This document shows, in pieces, positions 45,991 through 64,000 of a DNA stretch of 64,000 bases (its first letter is position 1; every line of letters begins with the position of its first letter). The notes beneath the pieces were generated by a model. That model worked only from the letters and a program-made list of their open reading frames with translations. It made no database searches and was not told where the DNA came from. Source of the stretch: a virus (Duplodnaviria; Caudoviricetes); IMG/VR virus record IMGVR_UViG_3300011624_000001, positions 24,436-88,435 of that record, one strand, 5' to 3'. Made by a program: the position numbers and the translations under genes.

Positions 45991-46181
45991 GCCGTACCAA
46001 GGAAGACCGGGACGCGCAGCGCGCACGCGGCGCGCTGATCCCGAACGGGAGCTGCCATTTTTGCGGCTACAAGGTGCCGCCGAAGGCGCATTGGTGCTCG
46101 GGCGAATGTGCCCAGGATCATGCGGCCGAAACTCGGCACCAGGGCGGTGCCGAGGGCCAGCCGGGTCATTCCGGCTTGTAG
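45987..46181 (+). CDS. Small Zn-ribbon protein
   Basis: CHFCG..WCSGEC; ATGA overlap. Confidence 0.6.
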   Translation: MSRTKEDRDAQRARGALIPNGSCHFCGYKVPPKAHWCSGECAQDHAAETRHQGGAEGQPGHSGL

Positions 46182-46489
46182 TGCTCTTTGACGAGCTTTT
46201 CGATGTAGGGGATCAGGGCCGCATCCATGATCTTCTGCAACGACTTGTGACCGGGCACGTTCTCGGTGATCCACTCCATCTTGGCGTGAATCTGTCTCGT
46301 ATGCTTCCAGTTCAGCAGCGTGGTCTGCTCGGCGCTGGCGTTCTCCCACGGCGCGACGATGCGCGGCGGGCTAAAGTCCAGTGGTGCCTGTCCTGCCCCG
46401 ACCTGCTGGCGCACCTGCACGCCGCCATTGACCGGCACAAGGTCCGACGGATTGAAGGTGAATCCCGGTCGGAGTGCTAATTTTTCCAT
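46166..46489 (-). CDS. stbC: Plasmid stability protein StbC-like (RHH)
   Basis: PWE..LLNWK..KMEWITENVP..SLQKIM matches the StbC pattern; last gene of the stb operon. Confidence 0.6.
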   Translation of the reverse strand: MEKLALRPGFTFNPSDLVPVNGGVQVRQQVGAGQAPLDFSPPRIVAPWENASAEQTTLLNWKHTRQIHAKMEWITENVPGHKSLQKIMDAALIPYIEKLVKEHYKPE

Positions 46490-46508
46490 TTGAGGTTCCT
46501 CTTTCTGT

Positions 46509-46721
46509 TCAATGCGGGCCGATCACCAGCGCGACGATTGCCCCGCCCGCCAAGCCGCCTACAAGCGCGGCCACGGCGACCAGGGCCGCTACCTTGCGCG
46601 CACGCGCCAGCTCGGCCTGGGCGGCCGCCTGGACGGTCTGGTGCAGCGCTTTAACCTCGTCGTGCAGCTTCCCAACGTCGCCGAGCATTTCGGCGATCAA
46701 TGCGTCCAGGGCGGTTCCCAT
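46509..46721 (-). CDS. Small coiled-coil protein with C-terminal membrane anchor
   Basis: Within the stb operon; ALIAEMLGDVGKL plus a hydrophobic tail. Confidence 0.6.
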   Translation of the reverse strand: MGTALDALIAEMLGDVGKLHDEVKALHQTVQAAAQAELARARKVAALVAVAALVGGLAGGAIVALVIGPH

Positions 46722-46729
46722 GCCCTGCC

Positions 46730-47428
46730 CTACTTCGTCAGGGCTTTGAAGGCCGCATCATGTTCGCTCTTGACCCCGGCCGCAAGGCGCTTGATCCCGC
46801 GCAGGCGGCTGATGCGCAGCTTCTCGCCTGGGTCCGTCGCGTCCTTGAGCAACTGGGTCAGGTCGGCCGGGTCATCGAGCACGCCGTTGATGGTTTGGTC
46901 CGCGCCTGCGAGCTTGCCATAAATATCATTAACGTGCAGCACTGCTTTTGGGTTCAGGGTGAAGCTCTTGTCGGTTTCGTGCAGCTCGAACAGGCCCGAG
47001 AACACTTGCTCGATCACCTCGTCCACCTCGACCATGTTGAACAGGAGGCGGATTTTCTTCGCGGGCACGCCCAGCTCGGCCAGGGCGTCAATGGTCGAAA
47101 TCGTGTCGCGCTGCTGCTTTTTCGCCGGGGTGGTCGGGATCACGAAGAAATCGAAGTCCTCATGGCTACCGCGATATTGTTTCATCTGCAAAATCAGCGC
47201 CTCGATATTGGATGCGCCAATATCGACCACTACATCATCGACCATCGCCATCGCTTCGAGGACATTACCGAATTCTCGCCCTTTCACGCGGCCGACATCA
47301 TCGTGTTCATCCGCATTGATGGTTTCGACCGCGATAATATCGCAGTCATTCATACGAGGTTTCAGGACGTGGCGGGCAACAGTGGATTTACCTACGTTGC
47401 CGGAAAAGCTGAGAACACCGATTTTCAT
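46730..47428 (-). CDS. stbB: Plasmid stability ATPase StbB (ParA/MinD-like)
   Basis: SFSGNVGKST..VVVDIGASN..YRGSHEDFDFFVIPT.P..KQQRDT signature. Confidence 0.85.
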   Translation of the reverse strand: MKIGVLSFSGNVGKSTVARHVLKPRMNDCDIIAVETINADEHDDVGRVKGREFGNVLEAMAMVDDVVVDIGASNIEALILQMKQYRGSHEDFDFFVIPTTPAKKQQRDTISTIDALAELGVPAKKIRLLFNMVEVDEVIEQVFSGLFELHETDKSFTLNPKAVLHVNDIYGKLAGADQTINGVLDDPADLTQLLKDATDPGEKLRISRLRGIKRLAAGVKSEHDAAFKALTK

Positions 47429-47871
47429 TTCTGAGTACCTTTCAAGTTTTTTATCAGTGGGTTTGAATTGGAGCCGATAAATCTGTCGGCTCGTTCTTCC
47501 CGTCGTTTTCTGGTTTCCATTATTTCGGAAACCGCTTCATGCTGATCGTTCGCCTCTGGCTCGGGGGTGCCCCCCTCCCCTATTGGCACGATGGTTTCTG
47601 CATTAACACTCGGACCCGCTGGCGCTATTTTCGGTGCTGCTTTGGACTTCCCATGACGTATGCGCCAAAGCATTGACGAATACGCGCTCATTTTCAGATC
47701 AAAGCCACTTTTATTTAGTGCCTCCAATATATGCTCATGCGAAACACCGGCCGCTTGCAGCGCTTCAATTTCGGGTAGGAGCTGCCGCAAGCGAGCGGTT
47801 TTCTTCGTCACCTTCGTGCTGTCGTTTGCCAGGGCGCGCAGCGCGTTCGCTGCATCCTGTATGTCTTCCAT
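47425..47871 (-). CDS. stbA: Plasmid stability DNA-binding protein StbA-like
   Basis: LLPEIEALQAAGVSHEHILEALNKSGF..AYSSMLWRIR; coupled to stbB; AGGAGAGGG RBS. Confidence 0.7.
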   Translation of the reverse strand: MEDIQDAANALRALANDSTKVTKKTARLRQLLPEIEALQAAGVSHEHILEALNKSGFDLKMSAYSSMLWRIRHGKSKAAPKIAPAGPSVNAETIVPIGEGGTPEPEANDQHEAVSEIMETRKRREERADRFIGSNSNPLIKNLKGTQK

Positions 47872-47896
47872 AGCACGACTGCCCTCTCCTGTACTG

Positions 47897-48200
47897 GAAG
47901 AAATAGTATGTAAGTTTTCTGTCAAGTAGTCAAGAAAATATATTTATTTGGTAAGAATTTACGTGATAAATCGAATGAAATAGCAAGAAAATGTAAGTTT
48001 TTTGTAGTGTTTCGCGTAAGGCTGCTTGGTTCTTCATGCTCCTGTCTTGAGCTGCCGCCCACTCGACTCCTGCATGTTCGACCGCTTGGCGCTGCTCGGC
48101 GCGCAAAAATTCCGGCGCGCCCGGCCGCGCTGCCCGCCGCGTGCGCAATGACGCCGACTCGGCACAAAAACGAAGAAAATTCAGCGGCCAAAACTCAAGA
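47897..48200. repeat. AT-rich region with (C/G/T)AAGAAAAT-like and ATGTAAGTTTT repeats (candidate StbA centromere/operator)
   Basis: Copies at 47897, 47931, 47952, 47984 and 48172; ATGTAAGTTTT at 47908 and 47991. Confidence 0.5.
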
Positions 48201-48348
48201 ACGAAAATCGGTGATATTCTTGCGGTTATATTGGGAGTTTCTAGGAAAATATATAATACTGTATAGTTTTATATATTCGATGCGCGTCCGAAGTTGCCGC
48301 GCGAGCGCGGAGCGGCGAGAATCGGCGGGAAATTTGAGGGGTGCAGAA

Positions 48349-48386
48349 TTAAACAGAGCAATTCGGTTTTGAATCGCTCTGTTTAA
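48349..48386. repeat. 16-bp-arm inverted repeat with 6-bp spacer (terminator or recombination site)
   Basis: TTAAACAGAGCAATTC-GGTTTT-GAATCGCTCTGTTTAA. Confidence 0.7.
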
Positions 48387-48397
48387 ATCCGGTCAGG

Positions 48398-48586
48398 TTA
48401 ATTTTGCTGCGGTTTGCTAGGCTTGCATTTTTCGGAACAATAGCCCTCTGCTCGCCACGAAAGCCATTTGACGGCCAGGAATGTCGCGCCGCATGAGCAG
48501 CGCTTAGTTTCGCTAAATTCCTGGGGTGGGAACACAGCGGCCGGGGCCGCTGGTTCGACTGGTTCATCAAATAGGTTGAATTGCAT
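48398..48586 (-). CDS. Small Cys-containing hypothetical protein
   Basis: MQFNLFD..CSCG..YCSEKC; overlaps the upstream gene end. Confidence 0.55.
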   Translation of the reverse strand: MQFNLFDEPVEPAAPAAVFPPQEFSETKRCSCGATFLAVKWLSWRAEGYCSEKCKPSKPQQN

Positions 48587-49508
48587 CGCTATTTGGACCG
48601 GATTGCGCGGTAGTATCCGTCGCAGCGCGCAGCTTTGCCACTTCGTCGCGAATCGACAGCAATTCCTTCAAGGTGCCCGCGTCCACTGGCACTTTTTCGT
48701 CGTCTCGCATAGCGACCAATTCATCAGCCCGATATGGGAGCTTGTCGAATAGGACGCCGATGGAATCAGTAGCGCGCGTTACCAGCTTGCGTGGAACAGC
48801 CCGCCCCTGGACTGACTTGAGCGTCACCTTGCCCTTGCCGCTGGCCTTGAGCGCATTCTGGACGACCTTCCCGGCGTCGCTGCCGTGCTCGCGCACGATT
48901 TCCACGGCGGCCGTGCTCGCCACCTCGCCTGCGCGAATGGCTGCTTTCAAGTCCGGCTCGGCGCGCGCCAGCATCAGGCAGTTTTCGATGTGGGTCGTGG
49001 ACTTGCCCTGACGCGCAGCGATCTTTGCGATGTCCCAGCCAAAATTCATCAGCTCGATGTACTTTTCGCCCTGCACCAGCGGCGATACCCCGAGTCCCTG
49101 GCCGCTGGACAGCATGTGCGAGATTTGTTCGTCCAGCCCGCCCTTGAACTCGACAGCCGACATATCGCCCAGGTCGCGGCCGCTTGGGAAGCCAGCGCGG
49201 AATTCCTCGATCAGCTCGCGCACCGCCCACATGCGATGCTCGCCATCCACCATGAAGATGACGGACTTCTCGGCCGTGCGCTCGACGGCAACGTCGATAG
49301 GCTTGAGCTTGACCCCGCCACGGATCGCCTCTTTGATGTTGTCGATGTGTTCGCGGCTGAGCGGGCGGTTGAAGCCTGGGCGAATTTGGACCTTGAAAGG
49401 ATCGACCTTGAAACTGGTTTCCTTCGATACGCCTTCAATGGCCTTGTCCTCGGCGGCGGCCTTGAGTGAGGTGAATTTTTCGGCGTCGGCGGGCTGTTGG
49501 GTGGTCAT
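48567..49508 (-). CDS. ParB-like (ParB_N/Srx) DNA-binding protein
   Basis: IRPGFNR..KPIDV..MVDGEHR; HTH IAKIAARQGKSTTHI. Confidence 0.75.
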   Translation of the reverse strand: MTTQQPADAEKFTSLKAAAEDKAIEGVSKETSFKVDPFKVQIRPGFNRPLSREHIDNIKEAIRGGVKLKPIDVAVERTAEKSVIFMVDGEHRMWAVRELIEEFRAGFPSGRDLGDMSAVEFKGGLDEQISHMLSSGQGLGVSPLVQGEKYIELMNFGWDIAKIAARQGKSTTHIENCLMLARAEPDLKAAIRAGEVASTAAVEIVREHGSDAGKVVQNALKASGKGKVTLKSVQGRAVPRKLVTRATDSIGVLFDKLPYRADELVAMRDDEKVPVDAGTLKELLSIRDEVAKLRAATDTTAQSGPNSDAIQPI

Positions 49509-49528: not shown

Positions 49529-50755
49529 TTAGGCGGTGGGCTTGAGGATGGTGCGCTCACCGCTGGCGGCCATCGGGCTTACGATACCTTCGGACTCCAT
49601 GCGCTCGATGAGGCGCGCGGCTTGGTTGTAGCCGATGCGCAGGTGGCGCTGGACCAGCGAGATAGAGGCGCGCTCGTTTTCACGCACGACCTTGACGGCC
49701 TGCTTGTACTTTTCGTTGTCGTCCAGGCTGATGGTCTTGCCGCCCACGGTCAGGCTGATGCTCGCGCCATCCTGGGCGGCCAGCTTGTGCAGCGCGCGCA
49801 CGGGTTCCTGCACACCGCCGCCCTCGGCAATCTGGTGCTGGCCGTCGCTGTCAGCGTCGCCGATGGCGGCCTCGCCGCCGAGCACCTCGACCAAATCGGC
49901 CAGCATCTTCGCATATTCGAGCGTCATGAGCGTCACATCGTTGTCGAAGCGCTCGTCGTCGCTGTGGGTAATGGCGGTGCCTTCGCGCAGCACGTCCAGC
50001 GGCTTGATGCCCTTGACCGCCAGCGACTCGTCCAGGGTGAACGAAATGCGGTCGTTGTAGGTCAGTGCCAGCTTGACGCACTGCTTGCCTGCGGCGATGT
50101 GGCGGCGCATATCGTCCGGTTCGAGCGTGTGCAACTTGTAGGTGACGGTGGCGCGGCTCTCGCCGCTCGCGCGCAGGGTGGCGTTCTGGTCGATGGTGAA
50201 CCCGTACGGCCCTTCATCAGCTTCCAGCCAGCCGGTCATCACGGCCACTGGCGACTTCTTCACGCGCAGCGACTCCAGCGGCATCTTGTCCACGGCCTTG
50301 AGCAGCAGCTTCACCACGTCGTCGGCCTTGCTCGGGCTCGATGCGTCCACGACCAGCCAGCCGTTCACAGGGTCGATCCAGACCCAGGTGTCGGAGTCCT
50401 TCGGGAAGGCCTTCACCAGCAGCTCGTCGGTGACGCGCTCTTTCAGTTCCTTGGTCGCTTTCTTCCCAGGTGGGAATCCCTGCTGTTCTTCAAACACAGC
50501 CGCGCGCTTGCGCACCTCGGCGTTGATGACGGAGCCCGGCAGCACCTTCGTTTGCGTGCGCAGGCGCAGCAGCATTTGCCTGTTGACGACGTGGACCAGC
50601 TCGCCGCCCGCGCGAGGTGCGACCCAGCCCAGGCGCAGGGCTTCGGACTTGGTGCAGTCGGTAAAAGACTGGTGCTCGATGGCCTCGATCAACTGGGCGG
50701 CGGTCAGGGCGTAGGGCGCTGGCAGGCGGTAGATTTGTGCGTTCTTGAAAAACAT
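49529..50755 (-). CDS. rdgC: RdgC fused to C-terminal FtsK gamma domain
   Basis: MFFKNAQIYRL RdgC start; ASISLVQRHLRIGYNQAARLIERMESEGIVS gamma motif. Confidence 0.9.
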   Translation of the reverse strand: MFFKNAQIYRLPAPYALTAAQLIEAIEHQSFTDCTKSEALRLGWVAPRAGGELVHVVNRQMLLRLRTQTKVLPGSVINAEVRKRAAVFEEQQGFPPGKKATKELKERVTDELLVKAFPKDSDTWVWIDPVNGWLVVDASSPSKADDVVKLLLKAVDKMPLESLRVKKSPVAVMTGWLEADEGPYGFTIDQNATLRASGESRATVTYKLHTLEPDDMRRHIAAGKQCVKLALTYNDRISFTLDESLAVKGIKPLDVLREGTAITHSDDERFDNDVTLMTLEYAKMLADLVEVLGGEAAIGDADSDGQHQIAEGGGVQEPVRALHKLAAQDGASISLTVGGKTISLDDNEKYKQAVKVVRENERASISLVQRHLRIGYNQAARLIERMESEGIVSPMAASGERTILKPTA

Positions 50756-50809: not shown

Positions 50810-51658
50810 TTACGCGGCCTTGCGCGTCGAACGCGAGGCAGCAATACGGGCTTCTTCGTAGGCCTCGACGCCTGGGATGCGCAGCTCGGTCCGCTGGGCC
50901 TTCGCCATATCGTTCAAGTCCATCAGCTTCACCTCGACCCAGCCGTGGCAGGCCGGGTTGTCGGCGATGTAGCGCAACAGGGCAGGGAGGTCGGTGACGC
51001 GCGCTTTCCACACGTCCGCGGTCGTGATGCCCTCGACAGTCGGCACGTTGGTGGCGGCCGTCGCAGCGCTGACCACGGTGGTGGTCTGTTGCAGCGCCAT
51101 CGACATTTCGTGCGCAGTCTCGGCCGCCGTCAGCGCCTCATTGACGCCCTCGGTATTGCCCGACGCCATGAGCGCCTTGGCACGTTCGTGCTCAGCCTCG
51201 GCAAGCGCTGCCTGCCGCGCCGACTCGGCCGCGAGCTGGGCGCGCTGGTCGGCCGCGATCTTGTCGAGCAGCGCTTGCTGGATGGCGGCCTTGCGCTTCT
51301 GTTCCTGATCGTAGGACAGCATCGAGCCCTTGAGCAGCTTGATTTGCGCGTCCAGGCGGTCGAGCGGCTTGCGGAACAGGTCCATGATGAGTTTCTTGGC
51401 CGCGTCCATCGGGCGCGTGATCGCCAAGCGCTGATCTTCGAGGCGCTTGTACATCGCCTGCAATTCGACCAGCTCGACCCCGGCCAGCTCGTACAGCATG
51501 GGGCTGTCGATGACGGTGACGAACATGCCATTGCAGGTGCTATCTGCCAGGGTCCACAGTTCCTCGGCCTTTGGCGTGCCAGCGGGCAGCGCGGGCAGGA
51601 CGGTCGGCGCGGCATCGTTCGCGGCTTCGGCCCCGGCTTTTGGCTTTCTACTTGCCAT
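50810..51658 (-). CDS. Coiled-coil recombination-module protein (Mu Gam-like?)
   Basis: RLAITRPMDAAKK..WKARVTD..IPGVEAYEE pattern; next to exonuclease and SSAP genes. Confidence 0.5.
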   Translation of the reverse strand: MASRKPKAGAEAANDAAPTVLPALPAGTPKAEELWTLADSTCNGMFVTVIDSPMLYELAGVELVELQAMYKRLEDQRLAITRPMDAAKKLIMDLFRKPLDRLDAQIKLLKGSMLSYDQEQKRKAAIQQALLDKIAADQRAQLAAESARQAALAEAEHERAKALMASGNTEGVNEALTAAETAHEMSMALQQTTTVVSAATAATNVPTVEGITTADVWKARVTDLPALLRYIADNPACHGWVEVKLMDLNDMAKAQRTELRIPGVEAYEEARIAASRSTRKAA

Positions 51659-52223
51659 GTTTAATTCTCCATTTGTGAATCGTCAGCAGCGACATAAAGC
51701 AGGGGAGGTCGGTCGGGTCCGTGAACTCCTGCAAGCGGTAGGTGCCATCCGGGCGCAGGCCCAGCGCGAACCGCTTTTCGATGCCAGCGCCTTCGAGGTT
51801 GTGCATTTCCTTATAGGCCGCAAGCTGCGGCCCGATAACCGGGCCGAGCTGCATCATTTTCTTGATGTCCACCACGGACTTGACGCCCCGGATCGCGCCG
51901 GTTCGGTCGGACGTGCCGCAGTAGCCAAGCGGGTGGTACATGCGCTTCTCGATGGTGTCGGGCACGAACTCGACCTCATCGCGAAACCGCTTCCAGCCAT
52001 TCAGGTAGGGCACCAGGATCGGGTCCAGATCATCCTCGTCCAGCGTGCCCGCGTCGTACAGCTCGGTCGTCAGGTGAACCATGGTGCCCAGCTCGCTCGC
52101 GCGGCGCAGCACGTCAGGATTGATGGCCGAGTAGTCCACCAGCGGCTTGAGGATGCCCGTTACCGACGGGACTAGCGTCCCGTTGTAGCGGTATTCGTGG
52201 CGGGCTTCGTCAAAAACTAGCAT
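51648..52223 (-). CDS. PD-(D/E)xK exonuclease
   Basis: VPSVTGIL..GTMVH..YCGTSDR..VVDIKK..QLAAY. Confidence 0.8.
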   Translation of the reverse strand: MLVFDEARHEYRYNGTLVPSVTGILKPLVDYSAINPDVLRRASELGTMVHLTTELYDAGTLDEDDLDPILVPYLNGWKRFRDEVEFVPDTIEKRMYHPLGYCGTSDRTGAIRGVKSVVDIKKMMQLGPVIGPQLAAYKEMHNLEGAGIEKRFALGLRPDGTYRLQEFTDPTDLPCFMSLLTIHKWRIKHGK

Positions 52224-53521
52224 CACTTCGCCTTGAGCCATTCCAGCACGCTAGGGAACAGCGGCACCGTCAGCGCGTCCGGCTCGATGCCGAATTGTTC
52301 CTTGAACTGGTCGGTCGTCTTGCCGCCCGTCGTGTCGAGCTGGGCTTTGACGAACGCGATTTTCGAGGCCGCCAGCGGTGGGCCTGCTGGTGCTTTCGCC
52401 GCTTGTTTTTCCGGCTCTGGCGTGGCCGCCGCTGCCGGGGCGGGCGTCCGTACCGGACGCTTTGACGTTATCTTCTCGGAAGTCGGCTCTGGCGCTGGGT
52501 CGGCAACCGGCTCGGGCTCGAACAGGTTGCGGGTGCGCGTGTCGATGCTGGCGTCCAGCACTTCGCCGGTAGCCATATCGACGCCCGGCACGTTGGACGG
52601 TGGGGTTGCCTCGGCGGCTGGTGCTGGTGCTGGCGCTGGGGCTGGCGCTTCTGCTGCCGGTTCCGGGGCAGGGGAGGGCGCTGGCGTCTGGACCGGCTCG
52701 ACCACTTCTGCGGCTGCTGGTGCTGCCTTGGCGCGCGGCGCGCGTGGAGTGCGCGCAGCATCCTGGGCGTCGCCGTTCGACTGCATGGCGAGCGATCCAT
52801 CAGCCTGGGGCACCACGTCGATGATGTCGTGCAGTTCCTCGGCAGTGGGCAGGCCCATGAGCAATTCCGGGTTGTAGGTGCGTCCGAAGAACGCCGCCGC
52901 CCGGTACTGCGCCATCACTTGCGGCATGGTTTTCCATTTCGAGCCGTTGCGCGTGTACCAGCCCTCTTGCACAGCCATTTCCAGGGTAACGGGTGGCGAC
53001 TCGACCAGCTCGCCGGTTTTGTCTTTCGTCCAGGCGACGCAGCGCGCGTTCTGGATGCGGACAGTCTTGACGACTTCGGTCTTGACGTTGTTGATCCACT
53101 CGAACGTCAACTGCTTGGCGTCCACCTCATCCAGCCACTCGAACTTGAACCGCAGATTGTGCGCGTACAGGCCACTGTTGTTGATGAGCGCGATGATGAA
53201 GGGCGAGCCCCAGCTCGGGCGGCCTTCGATGACGTGCAGGTTTTGCATCACTTGCAGCGGGCTCGCATTCATGCGCTGGGCCAGATCGAGCGCGACCATG
53301 CAATTCGGCAGGGCGGCGTCGTTCTGCACCCATTTCTTATCCCTGCCGTAGCCCTCGGACACGACGGCCTGATACGCGGCCGGGACCATCGTGGAGGACG
53401 CGAACAGCTTGGCCGCGCGCTGCATGAACTCGAAGGCGGCGAGGTTCTGGAATCCCATCATGGTCGCCGCATCGTGCGTGGCGGCCAGGGCGGTGACGGT
53501 GGATTGTTGGTTGTCGCTCAT
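52223..53521 (-). CDS. RecT/Bet-like single-strand annealing protein
   Basis: SPLQVMQNLHVIEGRPSW..SKWKTMP..M..YRAAAFFGR..PELLMGL.T.EE. Confidence 0.8.
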   Translation of the reverse strand: MSDNQQSTVTALAATHDAATMMGFQNLAAFEFMQRAAKLFASSTMVPAAYQAVVSEGYGRDKKWVQNDAALPNCMVALDLAQRMNASPLQVMQNLHVIEGRPSWGSPFIIALINNSGLYAHNLRFKFEWLDEVDAKQLTFEWINNVKTEVVKTVRIQNARCVAWTKDKTGELVESPPVTLEMAVQEGWYTRNGSKWKTMPQVMAQYRAAAFFGRTYNPELLMGLPTAEELHDIIDVVPQADGSLAMQSNGDAQDAARTPRAPRAKAAPAAAEVVEPVQTPAPSPAPEPAAEAPAPAPAPAPAAEATPPSNVPGVDMATGEVLDASIDTRTRNLFEPEPVADPAPEPTSEKITSKRPVRTPAPAAAATPEPEKQAAKAPAGPPLAASKIAFVKAQLDTTGGKTTDQFKEQFGIEPDALTVPLFPSVLEWLKAK

Positions 53522-53538
53522 GGTGGTGTCCTGTGCGC

Positions 53539-53691
53539 TTAATGGGTTGGGGTTTCGATGAGGCGCGGCGGGACCAGCATGTGCGGGTACGGCGTGAGGC
53601 CGCGCTGTTTCAGGTAGCGGCGGGCCAAAACCCACTTTGCCGCCAGGGTACGGTCGCCGAACAACTGGCGGGCTTTGGCGGTGGTGCTCAT
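53539..53691 (-). CDS. Small hypothetical protein (50 aa)
   Basis: Read by hand: MSTTAKARQLFGDRTLAAKWVLARRYLKQRG; ATGA overlap. Confidence 0.5.
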   Translation of the reverse strand: MSTTAKARQLFGDRTLAAKWVLARRYLKQRGLTPYPHMLVPPRLIETPTH

Positions 53692-53831
53692 ACCGGCAGC
53701 ACCACGACGGAGCAGAGGTAGCCGAAACGGGCGGCGGCAGCTTCAAGCGCTTCGCCGCTGGTGAATGCGGCCTGGTCGAATTCGTGGTGCTCGCCGTCGG
53801 GGGTCTGAACTTTTACGCTGTATGTACTCAT
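53688..53831 (-). CDS. Small hypothetical protein (47 aa), first gene of the leftward early operon
   Basis: GAGAG-type RBS before ATG 53831. Confidence 0.55.
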   Translation of the reverse strand: MSTYSVKVQTPDGEHHEFDQAAFTSGEALEAAAARFGYLCSVVVLPV

Positions 53832-54035: not shown

Positions 54036-54060
54036 AAAAAAAGCCCGCGCGAGGCGGGCA
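54036..54060 (-). terminator. Terminator after cI
   Basis: Minus strand GCCCGC-CTCGC-GCGGGC followed by T7. Confidence 0.8.
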
Positions 54061-54785: not shown

Positions 54786-54904
54786 CCGAGGTGGTCAGGA
54801 ATGCTCTTTAATTAAGATACTTATAAATCGTCGTTATACACTATATCTATAGAGAAATAAAGTAATGATTTTTCTGTTTCTTTATGGCACATTACAGGCA
54901 TTTC

Positions 54905-54934
54905 TTGCCCAACGAGTATCGGGATGCTTATAAT
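54905..54934 (+). promoter_or_regulatory. Rightward early promoter (PR-like)
   Basis: TTGCCC, 18 nt, TATAAT, upstream of the cro-like gene. Confidence 0.6.
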
Positions 54935-56078: not shown

Positions 56079-56239
56079 GCGCCAGTCATAAAAGGCAAGT
56101 GCTGACCTGTTCGCTGGTGCGCAAGCGCTGCGCCTGCGGGAAGCAGGTCACGGCGAAGCAGCTCGTCACGTATGGCGCGTGCGACGCCTGCTGCAAGGTC
56201 CGCGCCGCCGCCTCGACGGGAGCGACTGCATCAAAATGA
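56075..56239 (+). CDS. 54-aa Cys-rich Zn-finger-like protein
   Basis: Read by hand: RKRCACGKQVTAKQLVTYGACDACC; coupled at both ends. Confidence 0.55.
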   Translation: MSASHKRQVLTCSLVRKRCACGKQVTAKQLVTYGACDACCKVRAAASTGATASK

Positions 56240-56985
56240 CGTTGAAGCGGACCGAAATGGCACGCGGCACCACGCCGCTGCGCAACACCAAGCCGATGAG
56301 CCGAAGCACCGCCATGGCGCGCGGCACCTCGACCTTGAGCCGGGGAACCGGCTTCAAGCGTGGCGGCGTCGGATTGCAAAGTGCTGGTAATATTAAGGAA
56401 ACTATTGGCATTCCTGTATTGGCGAAGCCGCAAAAAACAGCATCGACGCCCCGCAAGCGCCCTATGAAGGTGACGCGGCCGAAAATGACTGCGATAAGGC
56501 AAAGTGCCCAAAACAAGGAATGTACGTTAAGATTCCCATGTTGCAATTACAGAATTGACACGACCGTGCTGTGCCATCGCAATGGCGCAGGCGGTGGGAT
56601 GAAGGCACCGGACACGGATGCGGCTTATGGCTGCTATGCGTGCCATGCGGTGCTGGACGGCCAATCGCCGCGCCCGGAAGGGTTCACGCGCGAGGCCATG
56701 CTGGCGAGGTTCGATGTGGCCGTAGGGCTCACGCATATCGAGCTGGCAGTGCTGGGCTTGGTTCGGCTGCTGGAAGGTGGCCGAGTTGAGGTGATAGAGA
56801 AACAGGAGCAGAAAAAACAAAAGCCGTCGCCTGCTGGAACAGGAAACGGCTTCAACTCGAATCAACTGTTAGGGCAGTCAATGAGTAAGAAAATAGTACC
56901 ACACATTAACAGTGTGGTGAGCGCGCACGCGCATCAAAACATCGCTTTTTCACCAGAAATCACCTCTGCGGGGGTGCGGCCATGA
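56236..56985 (+). CDS. DUF1364 (YbcO-like) His-Me finger nuclease-like protein
   Basis: SAQNKECTLR..C....TTVLCH..GMK.PD..AYGC.ACH..LDG. Confidence 0.75.
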   Translation: MTLKRTEMARGTTPLRNTKPMSRSTAMARGTSTLSRGTGFKRGGVGLQSAGNIKETIGIPVLAKPQKTASTPRKRPMKVTRPKMTAIRQSAQNKECTLRFPCCNYRIDTTVLCHRNGAGGGMKAPDTDAAYGCYACHAVLDGQSPRPEGFTREAMLARFDVAVGLTHIELAVLGLVRLLEGGRVEVIEKQEQKKQKPSPAGTGNGFNSNQLLGQSMSKKIVPHINSVVSAHAHQNIAFSPEITSAGVRP

Positions 56986-57932
56986 GCGTATTTGTCATGT
57001 CGCTGGTCTGGAAGCGGTTCCCATCAGGCGGCGGCGATATGCTGCTCGCCCTGGCCCTCGCCGATCACGCATCGGACGATGGCACGAAGGTCTACCCATC
57101 CATCAAGCATCTTGCGGCCAAGACTCGTCAATCCGAGCGCACGGTCCAGTATCAACTGCGGCGCATGGAGGAAATGGGCTGGATCATCCTCGTCAATGCA
57201 GGCAATGGCGGGCGTAATTACACCCGAGAATATCGTATTAGCCCTGACTGGATTAACGGTGCAGAAATTGCACCCCCATCCAAAACGCCGCCTGGAAACC
57301 CCGAAAATCGAGGGGGTGCAAATTCTGCACCCCTGCAAAACGGTGCAACTGACGACGGAAAGGGTGCAACTGGCGACGGAAAGGGTGCAACTGACAGCGG
57401 AAAGGGTGCAACAGCTATTGCACCCGCAGTAAACCATCAACAACCATCAATACCCATCAGTAAACCACCAACACCGGCTGCGCCAGTGGTGCCACCAGCA
57501 CCACCTGCGCCACCGGCACCAAAAGCCCCAAAGGCAAAGGCGGGTCCGGCTTCGCCGGTCGTTGTCTTGCCGGATTGGCTTCCTGAATCGGCATGGGGCA
57601 TGTGGGTGCGCCACCGTGCAAAGGACAAGCGGACGGCGCTCGATGACGACAGCGCAGGGCTGCAAATCAAGAAGCTCGCCAAGCTGCGCGCCGAGGGTAA
57701 TGACCCTGTGGCCGTCATCGAAACGAGCATCGAGCGGGGCTGGACCGGCCTGTTCGAGTTGAAGGGTGCGCCGCAGGGTGCTCCCGCTGCCACGCCAGTC
57801 CGTCCCGCCAAGTTCGACCCTAACGGGTTCGTGAATTCAGGAGCCGCATATGCAAGTCCAGCACCAGCACCAGCCTACCCAGGCGCAGAGCCCTTCACCA
57901 TCGACGCTCAATTCGTGGAGCGCCCCTCGTGA
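56982..57932 (+). CDS. Replication initiator (HTH_36, lambda O-like)
   Basis: LLALADHASDDG..YPSIKHLA..SERTVQY..L; internal iterons; IERGWTGLF C-terminus. Confidence 0.8.
   Translation: MSVFVMSLVWKRFPSGGGDMLLALALADHASDDGTKVYPSIKHLAAKTRQSERTVQYQLRRMEEMGWIILVNAGNGGRNYTREYRISPDWINGAEIAPPSKTPPGNPENRGGANSAPLQNGATDDGKGATGDGKGATDSGKGATAIAPAVNHQQPSIPISKPPTPAAPVVPPAPPAPPAPKAPKAKAGPASPVVVLPDWLPESAWGMWVRHRAKDKRTALDDDSAGLQIKKLAKLRAEGNDPVAVIETSIERGWTGLFELKGAPQGAPAATPVRPAKFDPNGFVNSGAAYASPAPAPAYPGAEPFTIDAQFVERPS
57258..57424 (+). repeat. Iterons / probable origin of lytic replication
   Basis: GGTGCAAC repeated with a 21-bp period at 57342, 57363, 57384 and 57405; GGTGCA-N5-TGCACC palindromes at 57258 and 57315. 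Confidence 0.8.
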
Positions 57933-57933
57933 A

Positions 57934-58710
57934 GTGATGGTCATGGAGCCGGACGGCCAGGGCGGCGTCCGCGAGGTGCCCCGCATGCTGTCGGCCATCG
58001 ACCGCCTGTATGGCCGCTTCGCCTCCATGTACATGCACAAGTGGAGTTCGCACTTCACTTCCCCGGCCGTGATCGCCGATTGGAAAAAGGCGTGGTCAAG
58101 CGCGCTGATCGCCGAGGGGATCACGCCTCGGCTTGCGCTAGAAGGCGTCGAGCGGTGCCGCACCGAGTACCCGACGTGGCCGCCGAGCGAGGGACAGTTC
58201 ATCGCCCTGTGCAAGCCGCCCCTGGACTACGAGCAGGCATTCCGCGACGCGGTGCGCGAGCTGCGCAAGCGGCTGCTGAACGATCCAGAGAAGGTGCCGC
58301 ACTGGCCGATCCCGGCGCTGTACTGGGCGGCCGTGGACTACGGCCAGGGGGAGCTGATTGAGGCGAGCTACGGACAGGCCGCGGTTCGCTGGAAAAAGCT
58401 CTTGGACAATCGGCTCAAGGGCGACTGCCCGGACGTGCCACAGTATGTCCCGCAGCTCGCCGCCCCAGTCATGAACGACAAGGGCGAGGCGATCACCAGC
58501 GCCCAGGCGAAGGCCGACGCGCTGGCCGCCATGCGCGCCCTGGTCCGTCGCCAACCGTCGCCGGACGTGGCCGCCGCCAAGGCGCGCGAGGTGCTGGCCC
58601 GGCATGCAGCGGGTGAGCCGTTCCTTCCGATCCAGTTGAGCCATGCGCGTGAAACGCTGGCCCGGCTGTCGGACCCGGCCACCGCCCCGGACGACGACGA
58701 ACCCATTTGA
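57934..58710 (+). CDS. Replication protein P-like (helicase loader family)
   Basis: WPPSEGQF..LC..W...ALYWAA motifs; follows the initiator. Start uncertain (ORF open from 57850). Confidence 0.65.
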   Translation: MMVMEPDGQGGVREVPRMLSAIDRLYGRFASMYMHKWSSHFTSPAVIADWKKAWSSALIAEGITPRLALEGVERCRTEYPTWPPSEGQFIALCKPPLDYEQAFRDAVRELRKRLLNDPEKVPHWPIPALYWAAVDYGQGELIEASYGQAAVRWKKLLDNRLKGDCPDVPQYVPQLAAPVMNDKGEAITSAQAKADALAAMRALVRRQPSPDVAAAKAREVLARHAAGEPFLPIQLSHARETLARLSDPATAPDDDEPI

Positions 58711-59993
58711 CCGAGAGTACCGCCATGAAGCAACAAATCCTTGAACTGATCCTGAGCCGCCCGAATATCCGCACGGTCGAGATTGCTGACCGCATCGACT
58801 GCGACGTGGAAAGCGTGCGCCCGCTGATCGCGGACGAGCTGCGCAGCGGCGTCATCGTGGAAGAAGATATTCGCGCGCCGAACGGCCGGATCGTCCAGTC
58901 GTTCCGGTACGCCAGTGCCGTGGCTGTCGCCGAGGTCATCAAGGTGCTGCCGCCCGAGCCGTTGCCCGCCCGCGTGCTGCGCGCGCTGCCGCCGACCGAG
59001 CGGCCGACTGTTCCGCGTGCCCAGGAGCCGAAGCGCACCCCGAAGCCGACGCAAGCACCAGCGCCGAAGCCAGCCCCGGCACCAGTTGCCGCCCCAGCGC
59101 CGACCCCTGTTGACGCGCAGGCCGCTGCCGAGCCCCTGGAAATCGACGTGCCGGTGTCGCTCAAGCCCGGCGTCACCCTGGCAGCGCCGCCTGCCAGCGG
59201 CAAGGCGAAAAGCCGCGTGGATATGGCGCTCGACTGCCTGCGCGCGGCTGGCGGCAAGTCCGTGACCAGCGGCCAGTTGATCGAGGCAATGGGTGTGCCC
59301 AAGCACCACTCGCCATCGTCCTACCTCAAGTTCGCGCTGAAAGACGGGCGGGTGGCGCGCAGCGAGAATGGCTGGATCGCTGGCCCGGCGCTGCTGGCCG
59401 ATTCCGTGGGTGCTGGCGCGGTGGGATTCGCTGGCGAACCAGCCCTGGACGCCGTGGAGCTGCCCGAGCCTGCGGTGGCGGTACGCTCCAAGCCGTCCGA
59501 AGTGGCCCTGGTCGAGCCGACCGCTACAGTTGCCCCTGCGCCCGTCGTCAGTGACCAGCCCGCCGCCCAGGTCGATCCCGATGCGACCGCGCCGAAAGAG
59601 CGCTACCCAGCGCCGTCGTTCTTGGCCCCGCAAGCCGAGGCCGTGCGCATTGGCGGGTCGAGCAACTACCCATTGCCGCCCGTTGCCGAGGGCGCGCCCG
59701 ACATCACCCGCAATGGGCTGTACGAAAACGGGGAGTTCCGTAAGCCTGCGGACGAGCTGCTTATCGTCGGCGGCATTGGCGTGAGCGGCGGCCTGTCCGA
59801 AAGTGTGAATATCGGACAAGAGGCAGCGAACGAGCCTGCCCCGGAGCGATTCCTGGCAGGCGTGATGTCCGACGGCTCGCTGTACTTGAGCGTGCCCGGC
59901 AATGCGCCGATGAGCCTTACGCCTGACCAGGGCCGTGAGCTGTTCGATTTCCTGCGCAAGATGGGGTATGCGGCGTGGCCGACGGCAGCGTGA
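58707..59993 (+). CDS. Multi-wHTH Pro/Ala-rich hypothetical protein
   Basis: Two HTH-like blocks (IRTVEIADRI; VTSGQLIEAMG) joined by PA-rich linkers. Confidence 0.65.
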   Translation: MTESTAMKQQILELILSRPNIRTVEIADRIDCDVESVRPLIADELRSGVIVEEDIRAPNGRIVQSFRYASAVAVAEVIKVLPPEPLPARVLRALPPTERPTVPRAQEPKRTPKPTQAPAPKPAPAPVAAPAPTPVDAQAAAEPLEIDVPVSLKPGVTLAAPPASGKAKSRVDMALDCLRAAGGKSVTSGQLIEAMGVPKHHSPSSYLKFALKDGRVARSENGWIAGPALLADSVGAGAVGFAGEPALDAVELPEPAVAVRSKPSEVALVEPTATVAPAPVVSDQPAAQVDPDATAPKERYPAPSFLAPQAEAVRIGGSSNYPLPPVAEGAPDITRNGLYENGEFRKPADELLIVGGIGVSGGLSESVNIGQEAANEPAPERFLAGVMSDGSLYLSVPGNAPMSLTPDQGRELFDFLRKMGYAAWPTAA

Positions 59994-60895: not shown

Positions 60896-60908
60896 CGCTG
60901 CCTGCTCG

Positions 60909-61346
60909 ATGACCGCACGCCGCCGCTCGAACAATTGGACCGCTGCCGACCTGGCGCTGGCGCAGGCACGCGCCGCCAGCCCGGCCGTCGCCGCGCCCGC
61001 CAAGCAGGCCAAGTACCGCAACCGCAAGGTGGTGGTCGATGGCGTGGCGTTCGATAGCGCAGGCGAGCAGCGCCGCTATGCCGATCTGTGCCAGTTGCAG
61101 GCGGCCGGGATCATCGCAGGCCTCAAGCGAAGCGTGGCGTTCGAGCTGGCCCCAGCGTGTCACCTGGGCGGGAAGGCGCGCAAGCCCGCGCTGCGCTACG
61201 TGGCCGACTTCACCTATACCGAGGGCGGGGCGCTGGTGGTCGAGGACTTCAAGAGCCCGGCCACCCTGGCGAATCCGGTCTACCGCATCAAAAAGCACCT
61301 GATGATGACCGTCCACGGCATCCTGATCCGGGAGTCCCGCAAGTGA
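60909..61346 (+). CDS. DUF1064 family endonuclease-like protein
   Basis: KYRNRKVVVDG..FDS..E..RY..YVADF.Y..VVEDFK. Confidence 0.85.
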   Translation: MTARRRSNNWTAADLALAQARAASPAVAAPAKQAKYRNRKVVVDGVAFDSAGEQRRYADLCQLQAAGIIAGLKRSVAFELAPACHLGGKARKPALRYVADFTYTEGGALVVEDFKSPATLANPVYRIKKHLMMTVHGILIRESRK

Positions 61347-61738
61347 TCCTGTACCACAACTCCCGCATGGACAAGCCGGAAACGATCGCGCGCCTGGAGG
61401 CGATCATCGCCAGCGTCGAGGCGCACGGCAACCGCACGGCCGAGCAGATCGCGGCCGACACCGGCATCCTGCCGCGCATGGTGACGCTGTACGTCGCCTA
61501 CCTGCGCTCCATCGGCCAGCTCGGCATCTTCAAGCGCCCGAGCTGCACCCGGCGCGAGGCCGCAGTATTCAACCGAGGCCCGATCACCGGCCCGCTGCCG
61601 ACGACTGCCGCGCCCGAGAGCGTGCGTGTGACGGGCACAACCGTGCGCCGGGTGGGCGCGAACGACTGGCCGCGCGGGCAAGAGCATGTGCGCCGCACCG
61701 GCCTGATGGCCTACCTCTACCCGTTCGCCCCGGAGTAA
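61343..61738 (+). CDS. wHTH-domain hypothetical protein
   Basis: GTGA overlap; TAEQIAADTGILPRMVTLYVAYL. Confidence 0.6.
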   Translation: MILYHNSRMDKPETIARLEAIIASVEAHGNRTAEQIAADTGILPRMVTLYVAYLRSIGQLGIFKRPSCTRREAAVFNRGPITGPLPTTAAPESVRVTGTTVRRVGANDWPRGQEHVRRTGLMAYLYPFAPE

Positions 61739-61740
61739 GC

Positions 61741-62202
61741 ATGGAAATCCAGCTCATCAAGGTAGCGCAGGGCGCGCTGGTCCCGGCCGACGAGAACGAG
61801 GCCGAGAAGATCAAGAAATTCAAGCTGGGCGCGCTGGTCCGCTGCGAGGTAGCCGAGGTGCGCAACCCGCAGTTCCACCGCAAGTTCATGGCGCTGGTGC
61901 GCCTGGGCTTCGATTCGTTCAGCCCGCCCGAGGCGACGCACAAGGGCTTCCCGGTCGAAACCGACTTCGAGCAGTTCCGCGAGGACTTGACCATCGCAGC
62001 CGGGTTCTTCGTCGTGGCCTACCGGATCGACGGCACATTCCGCGTGCGCGCCAAGTCGATCAGCTTCGCCCGCATGAAGCAAGACGAGTTCGAGCGCGTG
62101 TACAGCGCCGTGGCGAACGTGCTGCTGCGCGGGGTTCTGGCCCGTTACCAAAATCGGGCGGTTTTGGACAATGTAGTTAATCAAATCCTGGGATTCGTAT
62201 GA
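61741..62202 (+). CDS. DUF1367 family protein
   Basis: LVPA..RNPQFHRKFMAL..RAKSISFARM...FERVY. Confidence 0.85.
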   Translation: MEIQLIKVAQGALVPADENEAEKIKKFKLGALVRCEVAEVRNPQFHRKFMALVRLGFDSFSPPEATHKGFPVETDFEQFREDLTIAAGFFVVAYRIDGTFRVRAKSISFARMKQDEFERVYSAVANVLLRGVLARYQNRAVLDNVVNQILGFV

Positions 62203-62897
62203 CCGAAGCAATCACCATCGCGCTGGACGGCCTGGAAAGCGCACCTACCAAGCGCTTCGTGCGCAACAAGGACGTGCCGCTCGAAACTGAGCGCGTGCGC
62301 GAGCGCATGATTTCGGCGCGCGTGATGAATGGCCTGACCGCCGTAGAGGCGGCATCGCGCCTGGGGTACGCCAACAGCACGCAACTGAGCCAGATCGAGA
62401 GCGGCGAGCGCAAGGTGCCGAACGACTGGCAGTTCCTCCTGCGCATGAGCCGGGTCTACAGCGTGTCGGTCGATTACCTGCTGGGCGTGTCGCCGCATCC
62501 AGAGCGCGATCCGGTCGCGGCCGAAAGTTTCGCCATGCTGCGCGGGTTCGAGGGATTGCTCCAGGCGCAGGCCACGGCCATGACGGCGGCATTCGTTCGC
62601 TACGGGAAGGAGAAGGAAGCCGCGCGGGTGGACCTGCAAGCCGTCTGTGGCGCTGCCCAGCACGTCACCGCCGCGCTCGCACGCATCCGTGAGCTGAACC
62701 CGGCGTTCGATGACGAGATGCGCGGTAGCAGCACGTTGCTGGCCGCCGTAGAGCGCCTGGAAGCTGCCGCCATCCCTGTGCAGGACGCGATCAACCGCCG
62801 CGCGCTGAACGAACAGCACTGCCTCGCGCTCGCCAAGGGCAAGGAAGGGCCGCTCGCATCCTATGTGGCCGACGTGCAGATGGGCCTGGAGTTCTGA
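62199..62897 (+). CDS. XRE-HTH regulator with long C-terminal domain (late-activator candidate)
   Basis: LTAVEAASRLGYANSTQLSQIESG..SVDYLLG; two genes upstream of terS. Confidence 0.75.
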   Translation: MTEAITIALDGLESAPTKRFVRNKDVPLETERVRERMISARVMNGLTAVEAASRLGYANSTQLSQIESGERKVPNDWQFLLRMSRVYSVSVDYLLGVSPHPERDPVAAESFAMLRGFEGLLQAQATAMTAAFVRYGKEKEAARVDLQAVCGAAQHVTAALARIRELNPAFDDEMRGSSTLLAAVERLEAAAIPVQDAINRRALNEQHCLALAKGKEGPLASYVADVQMGLEF

Positions 62898-63097
62898 TGA
62901 TCGTCAACTTCATTGCAATCGCTGTTGCCGCCGTTATCGTCTACCGCGCCGTGGATGAGGTCATGGAGCCGCTGAGTAGGTCGCGCGTGTCGGACGACGA
63001 GCTGCTTGCCATGCTGGGCCGATTCCTGCGCGTAATGGGCGGGACCACGTTGCTTGTGCTCGCCCTGGTGGCGCTGGCACTCGGGAGGGCTGCGTAA
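62897..63097 (+). CDS. Small two-TM membrane protein
   Basis: Two hydrophobic segments; coupled at both ends. Confidence 0.55.
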   Translation: MIVNFIAIAVAAVIVYRAVDEVMEPLSRSRVSDDELLAMLGRFLRVMGGTTLLVLALVALALGRAA

Positions 63098-63996
63098 TGG
63101 CCCGGTTGTCGAAAGAGCAGTGGGTCGAGGCGCGCGCATGGTGGGAGAGCGACGCATCCGTGTCGTTCCAGATGATTGCCGACCGCTACGGGTGCAGCCG
63201 TCCCGCAGTAGGGCAGAAGGCCGACAAGGAAGGCTGGGCCAGGGGAGAGGAAGGCACCGCGGATTCCCCCGCCCAGGGGGAGAAAGAAGCCGCAGCCCCG
63301 AAACTTTCGCCCACCCCGAAACTTTCGGGTCCGAAAGCATCGAAAGTTGCGCCCAAGGCACCCGCGCAGCCAGAGGATGAGGCACCCGCAAGCCTCCCAG
63401 CACTGTCGCAGCGTGACCGGGAATTGATGCTGGGCCGCCGCCCTGTTGGTCGCCCCACCGACTATCGCCCGGAGTTCGTGGCCGAGCTGATTGCCTACTT
63501 CGACATAGAGGTGAGAAGCGTCGCCGAGGTGGACGTGACCGACAAGGACGGCAAGACCCGAACCGAGAAAACGCTCGTCGTGAACACCTTCCCGACCCTG
63601 ACGCGCTTCGCCGCCAAGATCGGCGTTACCCGGCAGACGCTGCACGACTGGGCAACCGCAAAAGACCGCGATGGAGCCCTGTTGCGACCGGAATTTGCTT
63701 ACGCATATGCGCGCGCGAAAGATGCGCAGGAAAGTTTACTGGTCGAGGGCGGCATGACTGGGGTATATGAGCCCCGATTCGCCGTGTTCGCAGCCAAGAA
63801 CCTCGCGGGCTGGAAAGACCAGATCGAGACGACCGGCGAGGTCACGCATACCCTGGTCAAGTCCGACGAGCTGGACGAGCTGTACGCGCAGGGCACCGCC
63901 GCCATGGAGGCGAACCGCGCCAAGGTGATCGAGCGCAAGCGCCGCACCCTGGAGGCGGAAACCGTGGACGTGCGCGAGGTAAAGCGTGGCGGCTAA
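63097..63996 (+). CDS. terS: Terminase small subunit
   Basis: N-terminal HTH; GRPTDYRPE..FPTLTRFA..GV.RQTL.DW..PEF..AY..AK..QE motifs. Confidence 0.8.
   Translation: MARLSKEQWVEARAWWESDASVSFQMIADRYGCSRPAVGQKADKEGWARGEEGTADSPAQGEKEAAAPKLSPTPKLSGPKASKVAPKAPAQPEDEAPASLPALSQRDRELMLGRRPVGRPTDYRPEFVAELIAYFDIEVRSVAEVDVTDKDGKTRTEKTLVVNTFPTLTRFAAKIGVTRQTLHDWATAKDRDGALLRPEFAYAYARAKDAQESLLVEGGMTGVYEPRFAVFAAKNLAGWKDQIETTGEVTHTLVKSDELDELYAQGTAAMEANRAKVIERKRRTLEAETVDVREVKRGG
63296..63348 (+). repeat. CGAAACTTTCG repeats inside terS (candidate pac site)
   Basis: CCCCGAAACTTTCG at 63296 and 63314; inverted CGAAAGTT at 63341. Confidence 0.45.
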
Positions 63997-64000
63997 GTCC
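63986..64000 (+). CDS. Probable start of terminase large subunit (truncated by window end)
   Basis: GAGGT RBS then GTG GCG GCT AAG TCC overlapping the terS end; only five codons visible. Confidence 0.35.

Follow-up and report, generated by a model that had tools for sequence, protein, structure and literature searches.

A P1-type virion, lambdoid control genes and an R388-type stb cassette in a putative phage-plasmid lineage

Phage-plasmids are recognised as frequent vehicles of gene exchange between phages and plasmids. To our knowledge, their mechanisms are understood almost exclusively from the enterobacterial elements P1, N15 and SSU5. Low-copy plasmids usually rely on a partition system together with a Xer site, and phage lambda keeps its int gene at the far end of the leftward operon. 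Here we describe a virus genome in which traits of P1, of the lambdoid phages and of the stb operon of plasmid R388 occur together. The analysed window, a stretch of 64,000 nucleotides, comprises bases 24436-88435 of the single 88,435-bp IMG/VR virus record IMGVR_UViG_3300011624_000001 and thus represents the last 64 kb of the genome. Positions are those of the window unless given as genome positions.

Comparison of gene content indicates that a P1-type virion combined with a CI/Cro switch and a recombination module is the conserved architecture of a lineage in which exchange is confined to the replication and maintenance cassettes. The genome has a complete phage gene set, partition and resolution functions and no integrase, the attributes by which phage-plasmids are recognised. 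For its prophage we consider it possible, with a probability of roughly 0.3, that a CI-repressible O/P origin serves as the sole replicon of a low-copy plasmid. This plasmid would be partitioned by StbA and StbB and resolved by the host Xer recombinases at a dif-like site, and every plasmid function of P1 (RepA, ParAB, Cre/lox) would be replaced by an unrelated analogue.

The genome and its relatives

An earlier reading of the window, made from its letters alone (below, the sequence-only reading), had called for the complete genome, and this was achieved. Nucleotides 3-124 of the record recur as its last 122 nucleotides. The small terminase gene at the end of the window reads on into the large terminase gene (genome 110-1666), as in the relatives. 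In addition, an identical StbB with the same neighbours is found on a stand-alone 88,341-bp contig of an independent Logan assembly (run SRR1749284). A second run with the element is SRR7192206. End repeat, terminase junction and independent contig together indicate a complete genome of about 88.3 kb which is circular or circularly permuted. It has a GC content of 63.8% and 115 called open reading frames. It belongs to a temperate myovirus, for which the closest relatives, pBVIE05 and homologues of O in Burkholderia phages, suggest a Burkholderiales-type host. When near-identical DNA was sought for the region among phages and plasmids, short matches only, or none, were obtained.

The closest database relative is pBVIE05 of Burkholderia vietnamiensis G4 (CP000621.1, 88,096 bp), a circular plasmid in a finished genome. 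Searches with tblastn matched 58 of the 115 genes, 48 of them over at least half of the gene length. The virion and Dar genes are of the P1 type and colinear in both (capsid 66%, DarB 64%, CI 46% and Cro 43% identity), and pBVIE05 also shares the HNH, RdgC, ParB-like, NinB, late regulator and terminase genes. In contrast, it carries ERF in place of RecT and a phage initiator (phrog_11233) in place of O/P, and has no dif-like site. The slot occupied here by stb holds ParA, a partner protein and Rep_3. A literature search for pBVIE05, including its RefSeq number, found nothing relevant, and its GenBank annotation names a plasmid only.

In IMG/VR four complete relatives of 85-94 kb without a tyrosine integrase were detected (G001 to G004). 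G001 (IMGVR_UViG_3300028585_000003, 91,370 bp), an uncultivated metagenome record, was reached via its capsid, whereas a pattern-based search of IMG/VR for StbB relatives returned none. Its gene order is colinear for 93 of the 115 genes, with identities of 85% for capsid, 76% for CI, 80% for Cro and 85% for P. It shares stbA, stbB, the 70- and 107-codon genes next to them, a syntenic dif-like site and a Cin-like recombinase. The N-terminal, iteron-binding part of its O protein is unlike that of the present genome and only the C-terminal 50 residues or so match. G002 and G003 combine O/P with ParA and lack Rep_3, whereas G004 has ParA and Rep_3 and lacks O/P. A more distant member, the 95-kb provirus G005, carries a tyrosine integrase. 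Four Pseudomonas plasmids of 81-114 kb encode capsids with 35-43% identity and carry ParA.

Among isolated phages, Xanthomonas phage Rb1 (PQ569993.1, 91.5 kb) has a P1-type virion with Dar block (capsid 42%). It further shares an annotated CI with a divergent rightward operon, an annealing protein, an exonuclease and RdgC, and a late regulator upstream of the terminase; its CI is not detectably homologous to the one described here. Rb1 differs in a 632-residue serine recombinase, by virtue of which it is presumably integrative, in a DUF1376-type replication gene and in the lack of Stb and of a dif-like site. It is listed as an unclassified member of the Caudoviricetes, and a literature search for it revealed nothing relevant. 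Scores similar to the weighted gene repertoire relatedness (wGRR) against the present genome were 0.52 for G001, 0.21 for pBVIE05, 0.10 for Rb1 and 0.03 for P1.

CI, Cro, HNH, NinB, the late regulator, RdgC and the ParB-like gene are common to members down to 61% capsid identity. These shared early genes, and the same layout in Rb1, indicate that the union of a P1-type virion with lambdoid control is old. The maintenance slot, which lies past the distal end of the leftward operon and beside the virion and lysis genes, holds StbAB, ParA, ParA with Rep_3, or an integrase. The three-way chimera of the sequence-only reading is not supported as a singular case, since pBVIE05, Rb1 and four IMG/VR genomes share its architecture. 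Its other proposal, an undescribed lineage, agrees with our searches: neither a name, a genus nor a published description was found, with the supplements of Pfeifer et al. 2021 lying outside the search. The sequences themselves are already public, pBVIE05 as a GenBank plasmid record among them, and phage-plasmids as a kind are known.

Maintenance, control and replication genes

The stb cassette is encoded on the minus strand. StbB (46730-47428, 232 amino acids) is an R388-type Walker ATPase which matches NF041292 over its full length with 282 bits (cut-off 200) and is 48% identical to R388 StbB. It has matches in 1,516 plasmid records, 82% of them conjugative, and in none of 50,697 phage records; the nearest relatives reside in conjugative plasmids. 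A DNA-binding protein of 148 amino acids (47425-47871), encoded directly upstream of stbB, resembles R388 StbA with 31% identity (E 2e-20, pairwise BLASTP), and its match to NCBIfam StbA_2 is weak (19 bits, cut-off 100). Beyond stbB lie an open reading frame of 70 codons (46509-46721), conserved only in G001 (70%), and a gene of 107 codons (46166-46489), the last of the transcription unit. Searches of PHROG, Pfam and NCBIfam assigned neither of them to a family. Of the Stb maintenance module claimed by the sequence-only reading, StbB above its curated cut-off and StbA were thus upheld, but StbC was not: the 107-residue protein gives no alignment to R388 StbC and was rejected in this role. It is 38-47% identical to genes adjoining ParA in G002, G003, G004 and pBVIE05. 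The partition slots of G002 (17084-18273) and pBVIE05 (37900-39412) contain ParA and a partner of 165-185 amino acids, and the 107-residue protein is homologous to the C-terminal part of this partner. Apparently, the stb cassette has therefore replaced parA and the front of the partner gene.

An AT-rich promoter region (47895-48010, minus strand) with a TTGACT-17-CATACT promoter match precedes stbA. Having its own promoter behind the terminator of the leftward operon, stb forms a separate transcription unit. Six direct heptamers of the AACTTAC/TTCTTGC type, spaced by 10, 32, 21, 8 and 12 nucleotides, overlap the promoter; their core is kept in G001, and within the window the motif AAACTTACA occurs in the stb promoter region only. 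These repeats are a candidate stbS-like centromere and operator. The GC content of the stb region is about 48-56% (stbA-stbB cassette 52-56%) compared to 63.8% for the genome, and this lower value together with the plasmid-only relatives points to capture from a conjugative plasmid. Relaxase or type IV secretion genes were not found in approximately 65 of the 115 open reading frames scanned, a set that includes the whole of 46166-64000 and the greater part of the first 18 kb. The stb upstream region showed no DNA similarity to the stb/oriT regions of R388 and of Sulfuriferula and Pseudomonas plasmids. Two Pseudomonas plasmids of 84-90 kb with StbB were considered as possible phage-plasmids; the one inspected has an ordinary relaxase and MobC beside stbB.

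An AT-rich element (48230-48300), flanked by the leftward terminator and the stb promoter, is strongly conserved in G001; it reads AAACTATA..TAT.ATATATTTTC, followed by CCGCAAGA.TA.CACCGATTTTCG. A structured RNA which could act in copy control or as an RNA-based origin gave no Rfam match upstream of stb.

A single dif-like XerC/D site, CGTTCGCATAA-TCTATC-TTATGTTAAAT, is situated outside the window (genome 11292-11319) in an AT-rich divergent intergenic region. Its XerD arm agrees in 11 of 11 positions with that of E. coli dif. No such site is expected by chance, and none was found in shuffled sequence. Single sites were also found in G001, at the syntenic position, and in G002 and G003, and G004 contains a weaker version. 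None was detected in pBVIE05, Rb1 and P1, which have a resolvase, serine recombinase or Cre gene of their own. In the chromosomal dif sites of the nearest host-lineage genomes the central region reads TTTGTA or TTTATA, as opposed to TCTATC here. Use of the site by host Xer for dimer resolution is predicted.

The genome also encodes RdgC fused to FtsK-gamma (49529-50755, minus strand; PF04381 342 bits, PF09397 85 bits). FtsK-gamma is the XerD-activating domain, and its presence alongside the dif-like site hints at a phage-encoded Xer activator. The fusion protein is 30% identical to P1 HrdC. HrdC itself has only 301 amino acids, and its match to the fusion protein ends at residue 296.

The switch region of the sequence-only reading, a self-cleaving CI with a divergent cro, was recovered. 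CI (54090-54785, minus strand) consists of HTH_3 and Peptidase_S24, and its N-terminal domain is homologous to the 434 repressor (E 3e-7). The GDSM serine, the VKR lysine and a candidate Cys-Gly cleavage site can be recognised; these are S24 self-cleavage motifs as in RecA-cleavable repressors, and cleavage is predicted. AT-rich control regions lie on either side of cI, which is followed by a terminator (54043-54059). The cI-cro intergenic region (54786-55021) contains a rightward near-consensus promoter (54905-54934) and two 16-nucleotide repeats (54816-54831 and 54923-54938) that occur nowhere else in the window (0.4 expected by chance). CI presumably uses this region as its operator. The divergent gene (55022-55255, plus strand) encodes a small Cro-like helix-turn-helix protein (phrog_6223, HTH_24).

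Leftward from the switch the operon encodes a protein of 79 amino acids, a RecT-like protein, two exonucleases, RdgC-FtsK-gamma, a ParB-superfamily protein and a zinc-ribbon protein, all on the minus strand, and ends in a hairpin terminator. The RecT-like single-strand annealing protein (52223-53746, 507 amino acids) matches phrog_561 with E 9e-66 and found no match in Pfam. Its exonuclease partners comprise 282 (50810-51658) and 197 amino acids (51648-52241) and match phrog_10477 and phrog_298. RecT plus exonuclease, as read from the letters, is therefore present, and RdgC as well. The ParB-superfamily protein (48567-49508, 313 amino acids; phrog_1033 E 2e-42, weak HTH_ParB and TIGR00180) is conserved in G001-G004 and pBVIE05, is not homologous to P1 ParB and has no ParA partner. 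For the zinc-ribbon protein of 62 amino acids (48398-48586), start and C-terminal half are kept in G001. The terminator (48351-48384) has a 14-bp stem, and its G001 counterpart also folds as a hairpin whose stem is kept despite base changes.

Rightward, cro is followed by two small proteins, an HNH/YbcO nuclease, O, P, a protein of 428 amino acids, a resolvase, NinB, a helix-turn-helix regulator and the terminases, all on the plus strand. The nuclease gene (56179-56985; phrog_131, PF07102) lies directly upstream of O, and its true start is perhaps at about 56100. The O-like initiator (56982-57932; phrog_678 E 7e-37) has an N-terminal HTH_36 and shows 42-43% identity to O of integrating lambdoid phages from Burkholderia and Bordetella. 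Inside its gene lies the origin (57258-57475), in which a tandem array of 3.6 copies of a 21-nucleotide unit and inverted copies precede a less GC-rich stretch, precisely the arrangement of lambda. Seven GGGTGCAA cores were located at 57267-57425, four of them direct at 21-nucleotide spacing, and no cluster of these cores exists elsewhere in the genome. The P-like helicase loader (57850-58710; phrog_109) exceeds the PF06992 cut-off of 26 with 35.6 bits. An O-like initiator with iterons and a P-like loader, also named by the sequence-only reading, are thus in place. The 428-residue protein right after P (58707-59993), kept in G001-G003, combines a winged-helix-like segment at its N-terminus with long Pro/Ala-rich linkers; it was assigned to no family by PHROG, Pfam and NCBIfam. 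The nin-like region (60909-62897) comprises a Holliday-junction resolvase (60909-61346), NinB (61741-62202) and the helix-turn-helix regulator (62199-62897), a candidate late activator. It is conserved in pBVIE05 and G001-G004, and partly in Rb1. The small terminase gene (63097-63996) leads across the contig junction to the large terminase, which is 34% identical to PacB.

None of the P1 proteins and sites C1, Coi/Ant, RepA/oriR, RepL, ParA/ParB/parS, Cre/lox and Lpa gave a tblastn match in the whole closed genome, and six-frame searches of the whole genome detected no tyrosine recombinase (PF00589), Rep_3 or AAA_31 ParA. A large serine integrase is likewise absent from the genome, which has only one small resolvase-domain gene. 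The sequence-only reading had seen no C1, repA, repL, parAB, cre or cin in the window and allowed for P1-type control genes outside it. Such genes were looked for genome-wide and not found. Two corrections apply: the window contains the ParB-like gene, which is not of the P1 type, and a Cin-like recombinase (37% identical to Cin) is encoded outside the window.

Replication and maintenance of the prophage

The gene content is consistent with the following course of events. In the prophage the 434/lambda-type CI would repress the divergent rightward (cro-O-P-nin) and leftward (RecT-exonuclease-RdgC-ParB-like) operons. Upon induction, SOS-activated RecA would promote self-cleavage of CI, and Cro, O and P would be made. 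O would bind the iterons in its own gene and P would recruit the host helicase, after which the late genes would be expressed and the DNA packaged by a PacB-type headful mechanism. The prophage would be kept as a low-copy circular plasmid without an integrase. Partition would depend on R388-type StbA bound to the direct repeats upstream of stbA, together with StbB, and the single dif-like site would allow host XerCD to resolve dimers. StbA with its repeats and the dif-like site would thereby act as functional analogues of P1 ParAB/parS and Cre/lox.

We regard the plasmid state of the prophage as probable. Besides the stb cassette, it is favoured by the Xer site, by pBVIE05 as a free-plasmid relative and by the absence of any integrase. 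The integrating relatives bear a recombinase instead, a large serine recombinase in Rb1 and a tyrosine integrase in G005. Partition by StbA at the repeats is predicted from the similarity to R388. That the prophage also replicates from the O/P origin we consider slightly short of an even chance. Four genomes of the lineage combine O/P and a partition system with no recognisable plasmid Rep. A second origin was not apparent, as the genome contains no additional iteron array and the other 20 kb have neither tandem repeats nor marked AT-rich tracts; DnaA boxes are absent from the window. A mutual exclusion of O-like and Rep_3 initiators was also considered and, had it held, would have implied one initiator doing both jobs. 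This idea was dropped because pBVIE05 has a phage-type initiator at the O position in addition to Rep_3.

Several observations weigh against this explanation, be it the plasmid state or the use of O/P by the prophage. Headful-packaged virion DNA also yields a circular assembly, and the dif-like site could serve Xer-mediated integration. The O family had no match among 72,556 plasmids and was found solely in integrating phages. O and P are part of the cro operon, and no internal promoter was detected in this operon upstream of them; a CI-repressed prophage should consequently not express them. The Rep_3 beside the phage initiator in pBVIE05 suggests that the lineage needs a dedicated plasmid replicon. 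Finally, R388 StbB is needed for conjugation and not for stability (PMC3098194).

Several of these points recur in a rival account, which we hold tentatively as a credible competitor. It likewise assumes a plasmid prophage, with O/P restricted to the lytic cycle and lysogenic replication carried out by a separate, unrecognised replicon, like the division between RepA and RepL in P1. The location of O/P downstream of the CI-controlled promoter and the absence of the O family from plasmids would be expected in this case, and both pBVIE05 and G004 pair ParA with a dedicated Rep_3. The replicon might reside in the conserved, non-coding AT-rich DNA upstream of stb, past the leftward terminator, or in the small HTH_36 gene cassette outside the window, where a second HTH_36 protein is encoded (genome 3220-3552). 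On the other side, neither a second iteron array nor Rep_3 nor, in the window, a DnaA box was found, the folding energy upstream of stb is no better than that of shuffles in this genome and in G001, the slot of G002 holds ParA and its partner only, and four related genomes do without a recognisable extra initiator.

Three further explanations were weighed. As the main alternative for its lifestyle, the prophage might be integrated, with the dif-like site as attP which host XerCD recombine with chromosomal dif in the manner of integrative mobile elements exploiting Xer (IMEX), and with RdgC-FtsK-gamma as Xer activator. A single site with full XerC and XerD arms whose position is kept in G001, the missing integrase gene and the encoded FtsK-gamma domain would all fit, and TLC-phi is a precedent for a phage-encoded Xer activator (PMC6744903, PMC9226527). 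Nevertheless, we consider integration unlikely, because every integrase-less member retains StbAB or ParA, which an integrated element does not need. Moreover, the central region is unlike chromosomal dif, pBVIE05 is a free plasmid, and both independent assemblies are stand-alone without chromosomal flanks. Similarly improbable is a recent, one-off event in which a conjugative plasmid recombined with a P1-like and a lambdoid phage. The low GC content of the stb region and the nearest relatives of StbB in conjugative plasmids and of O in integrating Burkholderia lambdoid phages speak for it. The early genes shared down to 61% capsid identity and the common layout in Rb1 do not; a later exchange is suggested for the stb cassette alone, and G001 has it too. 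A metagenomic mis-assembly of unrelated elements is scarcely credible. IMG/VR classes the record as 'linear', but G001, G002, G003 and pBVIE05 have the same gene order, the Logan contig repeats StbB in its setting, and the terminase genes join across the contig ends in exactly the way they do in the relatives.

Should the O/P origin indeed maintain a StbAB-partitioned plasmid prophage, then a role independent of conjugation would follow for StbB, which is known only as a conjugation factor. Another possibility is that StbB marks the phage-plasmid as mobilisable in trans. The lineage bears on the function of StbB without conjugation genes, and on the question whether a plasmid prophage can live on an O/P origin under CI control. 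In Beta- and Gammaproteobacteria it joins the P1 particle, with the anti-restriction cargo that this injects, to a lambda-like chassis. The series of maintenance slots (StbAB, ParA, ParA with Rep_3, integrases) offers natural material on switches between integrated and plasmid lifestyles, and generalised transducing phages are useful tools in Burkholderiales. The most interesting specifics are the R388-type StbAB in a phage without conjugation genes and the possible unrelated analogue for each plasmid function of P1.

Virion and accessory genes and comparison with known systems

The P1-like structural and Dar genes named by the sequence-only reading were confirmed by tblastn, in which 18 proteins match P1 with 21-40% identity. 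These include capsid (gp23), sheath (gp22), tube, portal, baseplate proteins, Prt, Pro, PacB, DarA, DarB, DdrB, Hdf and Ulx. The Dar block (14246-28401, plus strand) encodes DarA-like (14246-16885), DdrB-like (16885-18786), DarB-like (21150-27950, 2266 amino acids) and Ulx-like (28000-28401) proteins, with identities of 28-40% to P1 (tblastn) and 59-64% in pBVIE05. On the same strand follow the morphogenesis and lysis genes (29497-45990) with portal, tube, BplB, gp5, Hdf, PmgG, capsid (37899-39533), sheath (39984-41615), endolysin (44759-45400) and spanin (45397-45990). Four tandem tail-fibre-like genes for proteins of 368, 719, 782 and 989 amino acids occupy one strand at 1-10001 of the window, in a region that starts at genome 24041. 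All four match the same N-terminal 150-180 residues or so of a single pBVIE05 fibre of 1354 amino acids, and they are far from the serine recombinase.

Most of the roughly 20 accessory-region proteins scanned (genome 2.8-17.7 kb) are without a match in PHROG, Pfam and NCBIfam. The Cin-like small serine recombinase (genome 4117-4716; Resolvase and HTH_7) is the sole resolvase-domain gene. Two arrays of about 110 bp (genome 2290-2440 and 7785-7925) in inverted orientation share several GGACA-type half-sites and bracket a 5.4-kb segment with this recombinase and the small HTH_36 gene. Possible functions are those of an invertible switch or of paired res-like sites. The HTH_36 protein (110 amino acids) is conserved in G001, G002 and G004 and shares its domain with the N-terminus of O (weak pairwise match, E 3e-4). 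It may bind an origin, as a second such protein, or act in regulation.

With the lambdoid phages (lambda, 434 and the Burkholderia phiE125 group) the genome shares the divergent cI-cro pair with an S24 repressor, the leftward recombination operon, the origin inside the O gene followed by P, and NinB with a junction resolvase before the late genes. Unlike them it has no int, xis or attP, and the stb cassette stands at the place of int in lambda. The virion is a P1-type myovirus instead of the lambda/HK97 or P22 type, and the genome is twice the size.

The stb cassette resembles stbABC of the IncW plasmid R388 (PMC3098194; bioRxiv 10.1101/2022.04.29.490116) in the order of stbA and stbB and in direct repeats that overlap the stbA promoter. 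It differs in that no relaxase, oriT or type IV secretion genes were seen nearby among the proteins scanned, the third gene is unrelated to StbC, the repeat sequence is another one and an 11-bp phasing is only approximate.

P1 (Punavirus) has in common with the genome the myovirus morphogenesis genes, the PacB terminase, the Dar system and an RdgC homologue, and probably, as the genes suggest, the plasmid-prophage lifestyle with partition and dimer resolution. Nevertheless, identity is only 21-40% over the 18 proteins and the wGRR-like score is 0.03, compared to a within-group wGRR of about 0.75 for the P1-like phage-plasmids P1-g1/g2 (Pfeifer et al. 2021, PMC7969092). The roles of C1/Coi/Ant, RepA/oriR, RepL, ParAB/parS and Cre/lox in P1 would fall here to CI/Cro, O/P, StbAB and the dif-like site.

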